Source: an uncultured virus (IMG/VR IMGVR_UViG_3300022822_000010) (lineage: Duplodnaviria; Heunggongvirae; Uroviricota; Caudoviricetes). From it: a DNA stretch of 20,000 bases. The stretch lies in IMG/VR virus record IMGVR_UViG_3300022822_000010. The stretch is one strand, 5' to 3'. The first letter of the stretch is position 1; each line of letters opens with the position of its first letter. Below the pieces are notes generated by a model that worked only from the letters and a program-made list of their open reading frames with translations, was not told the origin of the DNA and made no database searches. The position numbers and the translations under genes were made by a program. Shown here piece after piece: positions 1-9,004 of the stretch.

Positions 1-460
1 ACGATTGTTCGTCACCAAAGTCATCGGAATCGTAATCACCGCAAGTAAAGAATTCTGAGAAGGCCCCTTGCTCGATATACTTGAATCTAATATCTTGTTG
101 CCTCTTCTCTTTTGCTAAGCGACGCAAGAATGCGTAGAATGCTATTTGCGTAAAATAAGAGAATGCGTTAGGTTTTTTTGTTCGAGTCGCTTTTGTGATA
201 TCATAATTGTTAATGGCTTTTAAACAGTTTTCAACAGCGTCCATTACCATCTCTTCGCGATAAGTGTATCTTATAAAGTTAGGTCTAAACGACAGTCCAT
301 CAGAAATCTTTAGAAAGCAGGTAGCGATATAGTCAGTGACTATGGGTACGGGTTTATCTTCTAACTTAGCTTCATTAGATAGTTTCACGTAATCATAGAC
401 TGCGTTTGAAAAGTCTCTGTTGTTCACATAATGAGGTTTTTCTTTCTTATCTTCTTTCAT
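1..460 (-). CDS. gp55: T4-like late-transcription sigma factor gp55 (3' end outside window)
   Basis: Not in the ORF track; translated by hand from ATG at 460: MKEDKKEKPHYVNNRDFSNAVYDY...DYIATCFLKISDGLSFRPNFIRYTYREEMVMDAVENCLKAINNYD...NAFSYFTQIAFYAFLRRLAKEKRQ. HYVNN, RPNFxxYTYREEM and NAFSYFTQIAxxAFLRR are gp55 hallmarks. Confidence 0.96.
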   Translation of the reverse strand, partial: MKEDKKEKPHYVNNRDFSNAVYDYVKLSNEAKLEDKPVPIVTDYIATCFLKISDGLSFRPNFIRYTYREEMVMDAVENCLKAINNYDITKATRTKKPNAFSYFTQIAFYAFLRRLAKEKRQQDIRFKYIEQGAFSEFFTCGDYDSDDFGDEQS

Positions 461-493
461 TTAAAGTAGCCCAGTTGTTAGTATTACTCCCCT

Positions 494-522
494 ATTATAC
501 TATATTTCGCGCTATTAGTAAA
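494..522 (-). promoter_or_regulatory. sigma70-type (early) promoter for gp55
   Basis: Minus strand TTTACT (522-517), 17-nt spacer, TATAAT (499-494), with AT-rich UP-like sequence upstream; the -10 box is about 35 nt before the gp55 ATG. Confidence 0.8.
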
Positions 523-546
523 GCCTTATTTAATTAAAAATAAAGC

Positions 547-575
547 TTGACTTTATGAGTAAAATAGGTTATAAT
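547..575 (+). promoter_or_regulatory. near-consensus sigma70 promoter, divergent from gp55, no downstream ORF
   Basis: TTGACT (547-552), 17-nt spacer, TATAAT (570-575), preceded by an A/T tract at about 526-544. Confidence 0.75.
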
Positions 576-609
576 AAGGAACCCCGCCGCAGCCAGAGTA
601 GTAGTAGTT

Positions 610-630
610 TAAGCAAAGCCCTTCGGGCAG
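610..630 (-). terminator. probable intrinsic terminator ending the gp3-uvsY-uvsW-Sm-like transcript
   Basis: Minus strand GCCC-GAA-GGGC followed by TTTGCTT, just after the stop at 633. The stem is short and the U-tract imperfect. Confidence 0.5.
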
Positions 631-632
631 GT

Positions 633-986
633 CTAGTGAATGGTATCGGATATAGGTAAAGTATAATCAGTATCCATTATCGATACAGCTTGAGAGATGA
701 TGGCGTTTAAGTAATTCCCTTTCATATCATCTTTTACTTGGCATGATGCCTCTATATGAGATTTGTAGACTACACAGTGATCTTCCTTATTCACGGGAAA
801 GTATTCTTCAAAGTCGAAGTAGAAAGTCCCATCAGTATCTCCGATCTTTATAAGTTTATAAGCGCTGTCCAGTATATAGCGATCATCTTCTTGATCATTT
901 ACGATAGCAATTATCTCAGTACCTGAAGACATCTTAATGTGTCTTATATCTAGATTAGACGCTTCTTCTTCTACACAATCTTTCAT
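633..986 (-). CDS. conserved small acidic protein, probable Sm-like fold (gene between uvsW and gp55 in marine T4-like phages)
   Basis: 117 aa; IRHIKMSSGTEIIAIV matches the 'KLxSGEEII' start typical of T4-like Sm-like proteins; ATGA overlap with uvsW; syntenic position. Confidence 0.6.
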   Translation of the reverse strand: MKDCVEEEASNLDIRHIKMSSGTEIIAIVNDQEDDRYILDSAYKLIKIGDTDGTFYFDFEEYFPVNKEDHCVVYKSHIEASCQVKDDMKGNYLNAIISQAVSIMDTDYTLPISDTIH

Positions 987-2476
987 TTGAATTCTACCTC
1001 ATAAATATTGTAAGTGAATTTCTCTTTAGCATAAACCGCTATACGAACACCAGCATGGTTGAGCGTGTAATTCTTCTTAGACTTCCAATGGAAATCATCT
1101 GCTACATCGAACAACATTGCTGTCTGACCATTATCGGCTATTCTTAAGCTTCTACCGATACTTTGTAAAATCTTAATCTGAGACTTACTTGGTGCCGCAA
1201 ATATTACATTATGAAGATTTCTTATATTAACACCAGTAGAGAATACTTGGAGCGAAGCGACAATCACTGCGTCTTTCTCCGTCTCCGTAATCTTTCTCAC
1301 CATCTCGCGCGTATCAACGTCTGTAGCACCAGAGACAAAGAATATTTTTCTCCCTCTTCTGGCCTTCTCTTGAATCATCTCGTGAAGTAACTTACCATGC
1401 TTTATACGTTGAAACAACACGAGCGTATTACCTTCTTGATCTACTGCTAAGTTTGTTAAAAACTTGTTTCGCTTCTCGTGTTCGATGATGTAATTAATTT
1501 CGGCTTGGTAGTCCATCTTGACTACTTCGCGGCATTCGTCGTCGCCATACTTTAATAGTAGCACGTTAATATCTAGGGCCGATATGTGGCCTTGATCCAT
1601 AAGTGTCTTAGTAGTCGTGACTTTGAATACGGGGCCGAACATACCTTCAAGTTGTAGCTTATGAGTATGCTCGCCGCCGATCGTACCCGTTGTACCAAGC
1701 CTGTACTCGGCTTCTTTTAACTTTGACATAATTGATGAGAGTGACTTAGCTTTGGCAGTGTGACACTCGTCTACAATACCCATCCCGAACCTAGCAAACC
1801 ACGGCGTTTGTAGATTATAAATCGATTGCCAAGTTGATATAAGAATTTTCTTTTTGATAAACTTATCTTTACCACCATATATCTTATGACACAATTCTTC
1901 AACATCAAAGCCACGGTCGTGTGTAGAGTAATCCGAAAAGTCGTCATACATCTGAGCAACAAGGGCTGTAGTCGGCACAACAATTAGGATATCTTTGTCG
2001 TAATTCTTCATGTAATGTCGAAGCATCGTGTAAATAATCAGCGACTTACCCGAAGCCGTTGGTGATAATAACAAGCTGTTCTTAGTTCTAATCGCGTGAT
2101 GAACCGCATCAAGCTGAAAATCTCGATGTTCGATTACTTCGCCGCGTGAAGTGAAGGTACAATCCTTTATGAAACTCATGTCTACGTCGTATGATGCTCC
2201 AGGTGAGCCGTAATAATTGTTGAACTTAACCTCAAGCGCATAATCTCTCGATTTACAAAACTCTTCAAGGTATTTAAACAACCCAACAGGCAATTCGTTT
2301 TTACGTGAATCCCAAAGTCTTATTTTACCGTCCCACATTTTATTCTTGAAACTAGGGATGAAAGCGTATCCGGGGACGAAAAAACAGAAAAAGTCGCTTA
2401 GTTCATTAGATATTCCGCGATCACATTCAATGTGTAAGAATGCGTGATTCTTCTTTTGTACAACTAACGTATCCAT
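983..2476 (-). CDS. uvsW: UvsW SF2 DNA/RNA-DNA helicase
   Basis: WDGKIRL N-terminal motif, Walker A SPTASGKS, DECH, GTTGT, QSIGRSLR. Start moved from 2506 to ATG 2476 (MDTLVVQKKN), just after the uvsY stop. Confidence 0.97.
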   Translation of the reverse strand: MDTLVVQKKNHAFLHIECDRGISNELSDFFCFFVPGYAFIPSFKNKMWDGKIRLWDSRKNELPVGLFKYLEEFCKSRDYALEVKFNNYYGSPGASYDVDMSFIKDCTFTSRGEVIEHRDFQLDAVHHAIRTKNSLLLSPTASGKSLIIYTMLRHYMKNYDKDILIVVPTTALVAQMYDDFSDYSTHDRGFDVEELCHKIYGGKDKFIKKKILISTWQSIYNLQTPWFARFGMGIVDECHTAKAKSLSSIMSKLKEAEYRLGTTGTIGGEHTHKLQLEGMFGPVFKVTTTKTLMDQGHISALDINVLLLKYGDDECREVVKMDYQAEINYIIEHEKRNKFLTNLAVDQEGNTLVLFQRIKHGKLLHEMIQEKARRGRKIFFVSGATDVDTREMVRKITETEKDAVIVASLQVFSTGVNIRNLHNVIFAAPSKSQIKILQSIGRSLRIADNGQTAMLFDVADDFHWKSKKNYTLNHAGVRIAVYAKEKFTYNIYEVEFK

Positions 2477-2478
2477 AA

Positions 2479-2925
2479 TTAAGCACCTGCGGTAAATTTC
2501 CGCCATTCTATAATGTTTTTAATAGTATTGCCCCTGAATCGAACATTACCCATAATCTCGTTTAGAGTCTCAACCGTAATCTTTATCTCATCTATGCTAT
2601 ACTTAGCCTCAATTAAGTCAGGGTCAGCATCATAAAATTTATCCATATCACTTTTCATGACTCTCAAGCCGTTCAGCGGGTCGTAATCCCAACCAAGATC
2701 ATCCATTTCTTCTTTAGATAACTTACCGTTGTACCAAAGAAACTTATTCTTGACGAGTATGCTATATTTTGCTTCGCGCTTTTTGAGAATCATTCTGTGT
2801 ACTGATAGAATTTCTAGGTATTTGCTGTGTATTCTAGCTGATGCGATTGAGGCATCGTCTAGTAGATTTTGGTCAATAATCGAGTCTTCTTTCCACATTG
2901 ATATAATTTTTTCGAGGTCAAGCAT
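2479..2925 (-). CDS. uvsY: UvsY recombination mediator
   Basis: 148 aa; WKEDSIID, IHSKYL, WYNGK, IKNIIEWRKFTAG motifs; adjacent to uvsW. Confidence 0.93.
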   Translation of the reverse strand: MLDLEKIISMWKEDSIIDQNLLDDASIASARIHSKYLEILSVHRMILKKREAKYSILVKNKFLWYNGKLSKEEMDDLGWDYDPLNGLRVMKSDMDKFYDADPDLIEAKYSIDEIKITVETLNEIMGNVRFRGNTIKNIIEWRKFTAGA

Positions 2926-2937
2926 ATAGTCGCCATG

Positions 2938-3450
2938 TTAAAGTATTTTATAATAAGAGTATTCAAAGCTAACCGAAGCCATAAGGTATTCGATGGTTTC
3001 GACGCCGCTGTCAAATTCGAGGGTAGATAATGAAACGGGGAATGCGCTAGCAAACAGTATTTCTTTTATTGGATTGTTGTGAGAGTCTAGTATGATTAAT
3101 GTAATATCTCGTTGCTTCGTTGCCGTAAAATTGCTGTCGGGATTATTTACTTGACCGACGATCCAATCGTGTATCTCTATATAGTTAGTCAATTTCTCAT
3201 CAACTATGAACTGTAAGTCTAACGGAGAATATTCGATGCGGTCCCCAATCATACCTACATTTCTCTGCGTAGCGCTGTAGTTCGCTTTTGGTAGTGATAT
3301 CGGTGGTATTGATGCGGTCTTTACAAGATATTCGACATTCTTGTATGTCATGTTATCTATGACTAACGCAAAACTGTTTGGAGCAAGAAAGTTAATATCT
3401 TTGTTTTTGGTACTCTCTTTTGCTAAGTCTATATCTGTATTATATATCAT
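2938..3450 (-). CDS. gp3: tail completion / tube terminator protein gp3
   Basis: NFLAPNSF, GDRIEYSPLxxxFIVDExLxNYxEIHDW, DITLIILDSHNNP, FPVSLSTLEF, SFEYSYY; lies after gp23. Confidence 0.9.
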   Translation of the reverse strand: MIYNTDIDLAKESTKNKDINFLAPNSFALVIDNMTYKNVEYLVKTASIPPISLPKANYSATQRNVGMIGDRIEYSPLDLQFIVDEKLTNYIEIHDWIVGQVNNPDSNFTATKQRDITLIILDSHNNPIKEILFASAFPVSLSTLEFDSGVETIEYLMASVSFEYSYYKIL

Positions 3451-3474: not shown

Positions 3475-3482
3475 TATTTATA
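3475..3482 (-). promoter_or_regulatory. T4 late promoter TATAAATA (gp3-uvsY-uvsW operon)
   Basis: Exact TATAAATA on the minus strand, intergenic, followed by GGAGG RBS and the gp3 ATG. Confidence 0.88.
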
Positions 3483-4911: not shown

Positions 4912-5967
4912 TTAGTGAGATTTTTTTAGAGCGGTAAGATAAGATTCCATACGGCTACTAACGATTGGGTCACCGCTTTCTTGTAGCTCTTCAGCTTCGT
5001 CTTTTACGACTACGGTCTTAATTTTAAAATAGCTTTCTTTGATAGTCGCGATCTTAGAAGTGAATGCTTTCTCGTTACGGAAGTCTACATCTTCGACTAA
5101 AGACTTGAGTTTTTCGCCTTGGGCAGCAGATAGATCAGCGGAATTTTCCGATATAATCTTGTCTCTCATTAGAATCTTATTAGCTTCATATAGCGACATA
5201 GCTTTCTGAACCTCTTCATTATAGGATTCTTCGAGTTCTTCTACTTTAAGCGCAAGTTCTTCTACTAGGTCCGCTTTACTTTCTGGTACTTCGATGTAAT
5301 GTTCAGAAAATACGCTTTGAAGTTTCTCCATAAACGACTCTGAAATTTCGGAACGCAAACCGCTATCAACCGCCAGCTTGTTTTCTTCCATCCAAGACTC
5401 AACTACGTAGTTTAAATAAGAATCTACTTTTTCTACGAGGTCTGTTTTGACAGCAGTAATTTCTTCCGATAATACTTCAGCGTATTGATCTTCGAGACTA
5501 TCGACAGCTTCTGATAATTTTGATGCCATAGCAGCCTCAAAAATAACACCAGCTTTTTCGCGGAATGCTTCAGACAAAGTAGCTTCGCCTTCAACAAGCG
5601 CATCTAGATCGTCGCCAAAATCAACATCTTCCAGCTTGGTCTTAGGCATTTCTGCAGAAGCTCTTGATTTTTTCGCAACAGGCTTTTTTGCTACTTTCTT
5701 AGCAGAAGCTTTAATAGCAGCGAATGTAGCATCATCGGCTCCGTTAATAGCTAAATCTAAATCTTCGTCCAAATCGTCTTCATCTTCGTCTTCGTCGTCT
5801 TCGTCGTAATCTTCGCCTTCGTTGTATCCAGCTCGCATAGTCATTTTCTTTTTAGCCGACATCGACATCTTGTCTTTCATTTCAGCTTTCAATTTTTTTT
5901 CCGCGATTAAATCAGTGTCTTCGACGATTTCATCTTGGAGGTCAGTCTTATTAACGTTTTTCAACAT
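4912..5967 (-). CDS. gp22: prohead core scaffold protein gp22
   Basis: LSEAFREKAGVIFEAA, KVDSYLNYVVESWMEEN, FSEHYIEVPE, KIATIKESYF, MESYLTAL. Start set at ATG 5967 (AGGAG RBS at 5978-5982) rather than GTG 6030. Confidence 0.95.
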   Translation of the reverse strand: MLKNVNKTDLQDEIVEDTDLIAEKKLKAEMKDKMSMSAKKKMTMRAGYNEGEDYDEDDEDEDEDDLDEDLDLAINGADDATFAAIKASAKKVAKKPVAKKSRASAEMPKTKLEDVDFGDDLDALVEGEATLSEAFREKAGVIFEAAMASKLSEAVDSLEDQYAEVLSEEITAVKTDLVEKVDSYLNYVVESWMEENKLAVDSGLRSEISESFMEKLQSVFSEHYIEVPESKADLVEELALKVEELEESYNEEVQKAMSLYEANKILMRDKIISENSADLSAAQGEKLKSLVEDVDFRNEKAFTSKIATIKESYFKIKTVVVKDEAEELQESGDPIVSSRMESYLTALKKSH

Positions 5968-7129: not shown

Positions 7130-9004
7130 TTATTCTTCATCAAGTTCGTTACTTTCGTCAACAGGAACGCAATTTGGTACTTGCTTGCCTCCTTTCTTTT
7201 TCATGCCAACTTGTTTGTATCCATCCCAACAAGGGTCGTCGTCTTCTTCACTAACGCTATCTTTAGGGACGCAGTTTGGCACTTGCTTACCATTCTTATT
7301 TTTCATACCAAGTTGAGTGTAATTTTTCCAACAAGGGTCGTTTTCGTCTTCATTTACATCTTCTATGGGTACGCAGTTTGGCACTTGCTTACCATTCTTA
7401 TTTTTCATGCCGAGCTGTTGATAACCATCCCAGCAAGGGTCGTCTTTATCTTTCTTCTTTTCGGTTATAATAGGCCCCTCAACATTTTTGCTTTCAAACG
7501 AGTCTGACGGGGTTGGGTTGGCTTTTTCTTCAGCTTCAATTTGTTTTATAATTTCCGCAATCTCGTCTTCTTTCTGCATTAAGATATTCTTACGAACCCA
7601 TTCAGCGCTGTAATAACGCCCGACAAACTCATCAACTTCTCTTAGCGTACCGATTCGCTCGCGAAGCAATTCAGCATTCTTCATCTCAGCAAAATAAGAG
7701 TCGCTTATGTAATCGACGTTAATATACTGCCTCATGTCTTCCCACTCTTCTTGGGTAACGACGCCTTTCAAAATAAGTTGAGTTTGAAGTAAGTCGATGA
7801 ACAAGTATGAGAATTTCTTTCTGAGACGGTTGATTAACTTTTGGAATTTTAATTCTTCGCGAGTAGTCTCTGATGCCCGTCCTAAACTCACCATAGCATT
7901 ATCTTCGGGGTTTAATCTGGAATACGGGACAACGAGCGATTTATAGACCTTCTTTTGGAAGTATACTATATCGTCGATTTGTCCAAGGTTCTCTCCACCC
8001 GGCAACGTTGTGATTTCAGTACCGCGACCACCTTCACGACGAGGCAACCAGAAATCTTCTAGCATAGACATGTGAGCTTTGTCGTCTTTCATTTCGCCTG
8101 TAGTAGCGTCATAAACCATTTTATTACGATAGCGATTCATGATTCCTTGTAAGTAAGCTTCAGCCTTACCTTTAGGCAAATTACCAACATCGATATAGAA
8201 TATGCGTCTCTCGGGTGCGCGCGACAATCGATAGATAACAAGAGCGTCTTCCATCATACGTAATTGGTTAATTGGCTTCATCGATTTATGAAGATACGAA
8301 TGAACCTGTGTTCTTGATGGATCTAATAACCCGCTTGTTACGTAGGCAATCGAGTCTTTTGATATTTTTAATCCAGTAGCGGATGCATGGTTTGTTACGT
8401 TACCGATACCGCCTTTTTCAAATATGAAGTATTCGTCTGTACCTGTTATCAATTCCGTACCAGTTTTGGGGTCTTTATCCTTGATAATTTCTCTAATTTT
8501 ACGTATCTTTGTAGAGTCGATCGGACGTATGTCAATCAATCCTTCTTTTGGGTTAGCTTCGTCTATAATCTTGTGGAAATAGATTCTACCGTCTACATAC
8601 CAACGCTTGAATATGTCGTGAGCATACCAATTCAAATTAAGGAGGTTACACACGTGCTCAAACTCTGATCGGATCATATCTTTGATTTTGTCTGGTTGAT
8701 CAAGGTCGTCCATTATTAACCCCACCGGAGTCGAACCTTCATCAGATACGATCGCTTCATTAACGATATCGTCGATCGCAGCATCAGCTTCGCCTTGTTG
8801 GGCAGCTTCGCGATATTTAAGAATTAATTCGCGGTCATTTTTAGCGCGAGTACCTTCCATGTCGAGGTATGCGCCGTAGTGCCCACCAGCATCGACCGTA
8901 TAGCCGCCGTCATCTTCTTCGCCCGAAGGGACGAAAGAGACTTTTTTACTCTCTATCTCCTCTTCGGCTTTATTCCTACTAATAGTGTACCCAAAGATTT
9001 CCAT
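7130..9004 (-). CDS. gp20: portal vertex protein gp20 with about 120-aa C-terminal repeat extension
   Basis: WYVDGRIYFHK, NQLRMMEDALVIYRLSRAPERRIFYIDVGNLPKGKAE, EDFWLPRREGGRGTEITTLPGG; 624 aa versus about 524 aa in T4. Confidence 0.99.
   Translation of the reverse strand: MEIFGYTISRNKAEEEIESKKVSFVPSGEEDDGGYTVDAGGHYGAYLDMEGTRAKNDRELILKYREAAQQGEADAAIDDIVNEAIVSDEGSTPVGLIMDDLDQPDKIKDMIRSEFEHVCNLLNLNWYAHDIFKRWYVDGRIYFHKIIDEANPKEGLIDIRPIDSTKIRKIREIIKDKDPKTGTELITGTDEYFIFEKGGIGNVTNHASATGLKISKDSIAYVTSGLLDPSRTQVHSYLHKSMKPINQLRMMEDALVIYRLSRAPERRIFYIDVGNLPKGKAEAYLQGIMNRYRNKMVYDATTGEMKDDKAHMSMLEDFWLPRREGGRGTEITTLPGGENLGQIDDIVYFQKKVYKSLVVPYSRLNPEDNAMVSLGRASETTREELKFQKLINRLRKKFSYLFIDLLQTQLILKGVVTQEEWEDMRQYINVDYISDSYFAEMKNAELLRERIGTLREVDEFVGRYYSAEWVRKNILMQKEDEIAEIIKQIEAEEKANPTPSDSFESKNVEGPIITEKKKDKDDPCWDGYQQLGMKNKNGKQVPNCVPIEDVNEDENDPCWKNYTQLGMKNKNGKQVPNCVPKDSVSEEDDDPCWDGYKQVGMKKKGGKQVPNCVPVDESNELDEE
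7163..7444 (-). repeat. three tandem coding repeats, 102-nt (34-aa) period, in the portal C-terminus
   Basis: Cores at 7367-7444, 7265-7342 and 7163-7240 encode DDPCWDGYQQLGMKNKNGKQVPNCVP, NDPCWKNYTQLGMKNKNGKQVPNCVP and DDPCWDGYKQVGMKKKGGKQVPNCVP; 38 nt are identical between 7269-7306 and 7371-7408. Confidence 0.97.

Follow-up and report, generated by a model that had tools for sequence, protein, structure and literature searches.

A conserved orphan sigma70 promoter at the late-to-early gene border of marine T4-like phages: a candidate dispersed replication origin

Introduction

Bacteriophage T4 has at least five replication origins, and its early DNA synthesis starts in regions that are transcribed late (sections of PMC3016281). 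One of these origins, oriE, uses an early promoter, and R-loop formation at the origins needs no special sequence (sections of the same article); a G tract is therefore not a T4 trait. In the annotation of NC_000866, oriF uses the uvsY transcript, and the oriG and oriE primers run opposite the late genes 34 and 5. The oriF (ori uvsY) promoter is MotA-dependent, doubles as a gene promoter and reads uvsY in the sense direction into an A+T-rich unwinding element. T4 origins share no sequence motif, and their transcripts, as computed here, are not G-rich.

In ColE1 RNA II and at the mitochondrial CSB II, a G-rich segment of the transcript holds an RNA-DNA hybrid that is used as primer. Both ColE1 and mitochondrial origins are transcript-primed (sections of PMC3016281). 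Among marine T4-like phages, a single origin has been predicted for Syn9 (sections of PMC2984593), and cyanophage S-PM2 encodes CfrI, an antisense RNA at a gene 3' end (sections of PMC2984593 and PMC5931967).

Here we analyse a 20,000-nt stretch of an uncultured virus (IMG/VR record IMGVR_UViG_3300022822_000010; hereafter, the window) in which a strong promoter that serves no gene points against a late gene unit. The features newly seen are that the promoter and its leader form a multi-copy unit, that near-identical copies stand at unrelated late genes, and that cyanophages also carry copies in the sense orientation. The element is not described in the literature searched; the search did not extend to two possible sources of a start site or an origin, the Syn9 transcriptome paper (reportedly Doron et al., 2016) and the Syn9 genome paper (reportedly Weigele et al., 2007). 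It is likewise not described in the sections covered of PMC2984593, PMC12197685, PMC5931967 and PMC5082946, the last of which has antisense tables that, by their captions, concern the host.

Results

An orphan promoter between the Sm-like gene and gp55

The window is part of a T4-like phage genome, and every recognisable gene lies on its minus strand. The 5' part of the gene for the late sigma factor gp55 (1..460, minus; phrog_234, E 1e-46) starts at 460 and runs past the window edge. Its sigma70-type promoter, TTTACT-17-TATAAT (494..522, minus; -35 box at 522-517, -10 box at 499-494), matches 10 of 12 consensus positions and is one of four forward promoters of the window phage with a common upstream A tract and TTTACT. 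Back-to-back with it stands the orphan sigma70-type promoter, TTGACT-17-TATAAT (547..575, plus; -35 box at 547-552, -10 box at 570-575), an 11/12 match and the best sigma70 site in the 20 kb window. The A/T core that separates the two -35 boxes (523..546) recurs upstream of unpaired promoters of the same phage and is probably UP-element DNA common to both. A fixed leader follows the orphan -10 box (576..606, plus), with an RNA start predicted from spacing at 581-582, and a GCCC-TTC-GGGC triloop palindrome lies at 618..628, 5 nt from the stop codon of the Sm-like gene. That gene (633..986, minus; 117 aa; phrog_527, 3e-8) is the last of a late unit comprising a tail-tube-like gene, uvsY (2479..2925, minus; PF11056), uvsW (983..2506, minus; matching annotated uvsW helicases) and the Sm-like gene, all headed by the late promoter TATAAATA (3475..3482, minus).

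An earlier, sequence-only reading of the window had placed both promoters, the start site and the hairpin at these same positions, had judged the plus promoter the closer to consensus and had found no plus-strand gene behind it; all of this stands, the only plus-strand ORF being one of 56 aa (756-926) within the Sm-like gene. The gene labels gp55, uvsY and uvsW also hold. The "Sm-like" label is indirect: phrog_527 is common to the window protein and the Syn9 protein at the same place (gp143, which also matches PF16243 Sm_like), but the window protein itself has no Pfam match, and a relative (L006) reaches 14.7 bits for PF16243 against a cut-off of 29.4. In 46 of 53 representatives the last two residues of the Sm-like protein are a hydrophobic one and His; an acidic low-complexity tail precedes them, and this ending looks like a C-terminal docking motif.

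The locus resembles T4 oriF in its nearness to uvsY and uvsW and in an RNA that would run toward the uvsW 3' end. Unlike at oriF, uvsY and uvsW here are co-directional late genes, and the orphan promoter has no gene of its own. Where a MotA box would be sought, at -30, the window and its relatives carry a standard -35 hexamer, and a promoter for host polymerase before late times is present as the predicted, conserved sigma70 site.

Three side observations concern the same stretch and its samples. In the gp55 leader (461-493, minus), the only strong G-rich stretch resembling a ribosome-binding site lies at or before the predicted start, 27 nt from the ATG; in relatives it lies about 8 nt before the ATG, and gp55 translation in the window phage may be weak or set differently. 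The gp20 portal ORF (7130-9004, minus; 624 aa) carries at its 3' end (7130-7480) three repeats of the cysteine/tryptophan motif PCW..GY...GMK.K.GKQVPNCVP, which come either from a genuine fusion at the C terminus or from reading on into a small repeat gene. Finally, runs X1 and X2 contain another gp55-bearing contig, diverged and of lower depth (matched to window 84-280), which belongs to a related phage present in these samples.

The mirror symmetry is a by-product of promoter consensus

The sequence-only reading had treated the two promoters as arms of an imperfect inverted repeat. The arms do pair at 30 of 47 positions around 534.5, but the symmetry is not a feature in its own right. Across 39 short-spacer loci, the two spacers of a locus are no more alike within a locus (0.448) than between loci (0.444, p=0.40), so that the arms do not covary, and third promoters (44, in 31 loci) are equally alike (0.465). 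The arms of a locus do have a -35 variant in common (p=0.0005) and, weakly, the upstream tract (p=0.04). Because the spacers lack covariation and third promoters are just as alike, we regard the mirror as incidental: it follows from the presence of the phage's sigma70 promoter consensus twice over. A hairpin or cruciform role for the repeat was rejected on the same grounds.

Conservation among relatives

The window holds 54 promoter-like sites, against a shuffle mean of 54.2. A scan of the window alone therefore proves nothing, and significance was taken from relatives: the best 80 of more than 600 gp55 relatives, one record identical to the window, and phage C48C1 (82 in total). A profile built from 29 of them found the Sm-like gene in 73; the other nine, mostly too short upstream, were left out. 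Counting as conserved any antisense promoter of at least 11/12 within 110 nt of the Sm-like stop, we find it kept in 67 of 73 loci (49 of 53 after dereplication), compared with 31 of 2650 shuffles and 2 of 318 other gene ends. One of those two gene ends (L072) is itself informative, in that the whole element stands there behind an inserted gene. The boxes on whose conservation the sequence-only reading had staked its case are thus retained.

Conservation reaches well into the cyanophages. Among 80 Syn9-like loci, all 79 with enough DNA to score carry the antisense promoter and a near-invariant motif, even where the motif overlaps the last codons of the upstream gene. By eye, the antisense promoter is also present in S-CAM7 and MED4-213; P-TIM40, Stenotrophomonas phage Ps15, Xanthomonas phage X1 and BUCT-ZZ01 have a short spacer or none and no antisense promoter, so their replication must start elsewhere. 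Of the 27 strict promoters in the 151-kb record G007, the orphan alone runs counter to the genes.

Loci with genes inserted before gp55 separate the two promoters. Of 15 such loci, six keep the antisense promoter (11-12/12) with no forward partner within 200 nt, six keep both, and three score below 11 at that place. The orphan promoter is real, under selection and independent of the gp55 promoter. In eight loci (L030, L045, L058, L062, L068, L071, L075 and L081), neither a sigma70 promoter nor a perfect late promoter lies within 200 nt of the genes inserted between element and gp55, and read-through seems to pass the element there. As a separate observation, the orphan spacer in some of these loci reads as a near-late-promoter on the opposite strand.

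Additional copies in the window phage and in other phages

When contigs of four runs were mapped on window positions 1-3000, 517-606 (plus) emerged as a repeated module. In run X1, which like run X2 may be a source of the window, the flanks have a depth of 37-39, and the pieces 517-591, 562-603 and 574-606 have 77, 120 and 70, contig depth being a rough guide. The repeat pieces have loose ends into two other contexts, both of which were located by exact 25-mer search. The copy on contig L214 is identical over 517-606, stands back-to-back with the nrdA promoter and points into the end of a phrog_6637 gene; the L216 copy occupies the space from gp4 to gp2, has a late promoter back-to-back with it, and matches 537-591 with three other letters and two gaps. 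Positions 562-603 are identical in all three places, and the identity of the three copies stops about 28-31 nt after the -10 box. All three orphan copies have TTGACT, whereas the four forward promoters have TTTACT and unrelated leaders. Tetranucleotide likeness to the window is 0.93 for L214 (best other 0.88) and 0.925 for L216 (best other 0.912). The two copies very probably come from the same phage as the window; that one genome has all three copies is deduced from the depths, the style of the promoters and the tetranucleotide values rather than read from a single contig.

The palindrome at 618..628 is probably a hairpin at the 3' end of the late mRNA and lineage-specific; L214 has a similar hairpin beside its late-gene stop, and L216 has none. 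On L214, two adjacent triloop palindromes (5915-5950; loops GAA/TTC and GTA/TAC, each closed by C-G) lie between the second copy and the late-gene stop. The same contig encodes a T4-type RNase H and, at 384-1250, a 288-aa virion-region ORF that ends in two near-identical repeats of about 55 aa.

The element also occurs at these places in other phages. Eighty loci were fetched for gp4 and 80 for nrdA; once duplicates and contig edges had been dropped, 4 of 48 distinct gp4 loci carried it at the end of the gene, and 2 of 41 distinct nrdA loci, besides L214, carried it ahead of nrdA. Two additional antisense promoters ahead of nrdA are without the G tract. C48C1 and the partial records G008 and G010 have a single copy, and G007 has a possible second copy as a gene promoter. 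A narrow consensus pattern gave 38 of 38 matches at the Sm/gp55 border, though the pattern was drawn from such copies. In every antisense copy examined the distance from a late-gene stop is about 27-57 nt, and the copy and the next promoter usually stand back-to-back.

Cyanophage copies in both orientations

Five cyanophage records carry the motif after a -10 box one to three times each. It has partial dyad symmetry and covers -6 to +11 at 2-3 promoters per genome. Orientation was read at 80 loci of at least 120 matches. Antisense copies number 56, with 53 at the Sm/gp55 border and three pointing into a long, probably virion, gene. Another 22 are sense copies, 12 before cpeT or cp12 and 10 before phrog_718, and the remaining two are unclear. 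In some cyanophages the motif runs directly into the ATG. The two Syn9 copies, at about 123.7 kb (minus) and 52.8 kb (plus), flank the main late block, and both point inward.

The phrog_718 gene is a conserved gene of 67-75 aa with no Pfam match that follows a sense copy near the early/late border (L204 5795-6007, which is Syn9 gp88; L181, L205, L206 and L208), and its product is a candidate partner of the element. Separately, locus L542, in a bin labelled Pirellulaceae, shows the cyanophage promoter motif followed by a cpeT-like start and is probably a mis-binned cyanophage contig.

A fixed, G+C-rich leader

The first 25 nt of the leader are G+C-rich. The window variant is C-rich and then purine-rich, and most relatives have a G tract followed by TATAC. 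Of 49 representatives, 34 have G as the seventh base past the -10 box. G makes up 45% of leader positions 13-30, compared with 20% behind 103 forward promoters. Runs of GGGG are present in 36 of the 49 leaders and behind 1 of the 103 forward promoters, and a purine plus TATAC, at a near-fixed offset, in 34 of 49 and 3 of 103, respectively. A -10-like hexamer (at least 5/6) begins 23-30 nt downstream of the -10 box in 25 of the 49 leaders and behind 18 of the 103 forward promoters. The -10 box (14.8 bits) anchors the leader more strongly than the stop codon does (9.0 bits). In relatives, nearest-neighbour energies favour an RNA-DNA hybrid over duplex by 6.0 kcal/mol at positions 7-30 and disfavour it further on. 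The window leader is atypical, being G+C-rich without a GGG run and with a hybrid gain of only -2.3 kcal/mol; locus L426, which has the window's first bases and then the G tract and TATAC, ties it to the family. The window leader is absent from 185,579 prokaryote genomes.

No A+T-rich unwinding element was found downstream of the orphan promoter in the window or in relatives. In the window, A+T is 0.43 at 7-60 nt and 0.59 at 31-100 nt (window mean 0.60); at 31-100 nt it is 0.64-0.65 in relatives, 0.63-0.66 behind forward promoters and 0.69-0.73 at T4 origins. Similarly, no GC or AT skew switch, one of the checks suggested by the sequence-only reading, was seen at the element in any of four long records (Syn9, G005, C48C1 and G007), a weak test given circularly permuted genomes with nearly all genes on one strand. 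In T4, a skew or strand switch lies near three origins, not all.

The suggestion that the orphan makes a structured RNA of about 50 nt ending at the 618..628 hairpin did not survive. The predicted RNA folds worse than shuffles (z +1.2 and +0.6), the 49 leaders fold no better than theirs (mean -3.98 vs -3.78 kcal/mol, p=0.69), no U tract follows the hairpin on the plus strand, and the L216 copy has no such hairpin. Rfam gave no match at gathering score (best E 0.68 for window 300-1200; none for five loci). Single leader hairpins with apparent compensatory changes are visible by eye. A conserved antisense ORF was also sought and rejected: the ORFs of relatives range patternlessly from 0 to 101 aa, several being a single codon.

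Discussion

We describe what appears from its sequence to be a self-contained cis unit of about 60 bp, composed of a strong host-sigma70 promoter and a G+C-rich leader of fixed length. Its core copy occupies the Sm-like/gp55 border, where late genes give way to early ones, in marine T4-like phages; further copies stand at the ends of other late genes. By analogy with T4, we tentatively propose, at somewhat less than even confidence, that the unit is a dispersed promoter-primed replication origin, placed like oriG and oriE and operating without an A+T-rich unwinding element. The sequence-only reading had offered an R-loop origin among its explanations, and this part of it gains genuine though indirect support from a conserved, multi-copy promoter and a T4-like mixture of contexts; the absence of an unwinding element and of a skew switch counts against it.

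Early in infection, host RNA polymerase would start at about 581 and make a short RNA whose first 25 nt would stay paired with the template or be held by a polymerase paused at TATAC, helped by negative supercoiling between the back-to-back promoters. After trimming by RNase H, the RNA 3' end would prime gp43, with gp44/62 loading gp45 there, and the resulting fork would enter the late-gene block. Origin use would end once gp55 takes over the polymerase and UvsW appears.

We place an origin first because a position-independent, multi-copy unit that is either gene-less against late genes or a gene promoter follows the pattern of T4 origins. The proposal draws further on the conservation of the promoter, its persistence without a forward partner, a leader anchored on the -10 box, the G-rich hybrid, copies at unrelated genes, the RNase H gene on the contig of the second copy, and cyanophage copies that are both antisense and gene promoters. 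Against it stand the missing A+T-rich element, the G-poor transcripts of T4 origins, the small hybrid gain of the window leader, the lack of a skew switch, the single copy in some records, the absence of the element from P-TIM40, Ps15, X1 and BUCT-ZZ01, and the fact that a transcription brake predicts the late-gene 3'-end position of every antisense copy equally well.

The likeness to oriG (ori34) and oriE lies in a promoter for the sigma70 polymerase, an RNA opposite a late gene, several sites, and a location in late-transcribed regions; the sense cyanophage copies double as gene promoters, as the oriF promoter does. Unlike oriG and oriE, the candidate origin described here lies between genes, at the 3' ends of late ones; its -35 box is of host type and it has no MotA site, and its leader is G+C-rich with no A+T-rich unwinding element. 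Its copies share one motif, whereas T4 origins share none. Lacking both a MotA box and an A+T-rich unwinding element, it falls outside the oriF/oriG class as that class is defined. As in ColE1 and at CSB II, the G-rich leader may hold a hybrid primer. However, the ColE1 primer is long and that of CSB II is made by a single-subunit polymerase, whereas the tract here is about 13 nt, lies at the extreme 5' end and is missing from the window variant.

Much of the same evidence could describe a generic boundary element at the ends of late units, a possibility we weigh seriously while holding it rather doubtful. A strong early promoter, a G+C-rich leader and a -10-like pause site would park polymerases or launch them head-on against read-through, or make antisense RNA to whichever late gene adjoins, and would thereby hold late genes (uvsW included) quiet early and shield the next promoter (gp55, nrdA, gp2). 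The spacing of every antisense copy from a late-gene stop, the usual back-to-back arrangement, the excess of -10-like hexamers at 23-30 nt, and the lack of an unwinding element or skew switch all suit such a brake, which explains the positions as well as an origin does. It fits less well with the 22 of 80 cyanophage copies that are sense promoters of cpeT/cp12 or phrog_718 and with the eight loci in which read-through seems to pass into promoterless inserted genes; nor does antisense transcription or collision need a fixed leader, and this one is identical at three places and near-invariant in cyanophages. An antisense RNA of narrower purpose has its precedent in CfrI, which is about 225 nt long and tied to psbA and a homing endonuclease gene; the element stands at uvsW/gp55 and at other late borders, with no fixed link to a single target gene. 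The predicted orphan transcript would overlap the Sm-like/uvsW mRNA on the opposite strand, and the sequence-only reading had considered an early antisense RNA that keeps UvsW off. An antisense RNA with one specific target would require no fixed leader and no sense copies. A uvsW-specific role is largely refuted, since copies stand behind phrog_6637, gp4, an inserted gene (L072) and a virion gene, besides those in the sense orientation. Together with two further narrow readings, a mirror hairpin or cruciform that hides the gp55 ribosome site in late read-through RNA and an antisense small protein with its start at the last His codon of the Sm-like gene, it is extremely unlikely. The stretch 488-580 does fold better than shuffles (z -2.4), the G tract is often Shine-Dalgarno-like, and the last His codon of the Sm-like gene is ATG or GTG on the opposite strand; against these, the arms do not covary, the element survives without its partner arm and behind other genes, the ORF lengths are patternless, and 7 of 53 Sm-like genes end in another residue.

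Two other readings center on the leader itself. A short trans-acting RNA of about 25-35 nt, multi-copy for dose and targeting a protein (perhaps the Sm-like neighbour) or a host RNA, would suit the point at which three-copy identity stops, the fixed leader length and the adjacent Sm-fold gene; we consider it improbable in that no terminator sets a 3' end, folding equals that of shuffles, Rfam gives no match, the sequence varies freely among clades, and the motif abuts the ATG in some cyanophages. Alternatively, a protein-binding site over the start may define a promoter class that co-regulates the orphan with cpeT/cp12 and phrog_718, the orphan transcript being minor. The imperfect dyad at cyanophage promoters and the split between TTGACT in all three orphan copies and TTTACT in all four forward promoters point that way. 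Yet the window's clade has no dyad, the keeping of an orphan promoter is left unexplained, and the exact cyanophage motif occurs in no cyanobacterial genome among 185,579 species (three matches, all in other taxa), which together make this reading highly improbable.

Returning to the proposed origin, the element gives exact, conserved candidate coordinates for the start of replication in cultured marine T4-like phages such as Syn9. A wider claim, that marine T4-like phages (Kyanoviridae and their heterotroph-infecting relatives) share an undescribed, sequence-defined origin family, in which a host-sigma70 promoter and a leader of 25 nt, rich in G+C, make their own primer without an A+T-rich element, seems to us somewhat unlikely as matters stand; if true, origin copies pointing into late blocks would, in addition, bring the gp45 clamp onto the DNA at the sites where late transcription relies on it. 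If the element is instead a brake, it would still be a control element that is near-universal at the late/early border in a very abundant group of viruses and that apparently has not been described.
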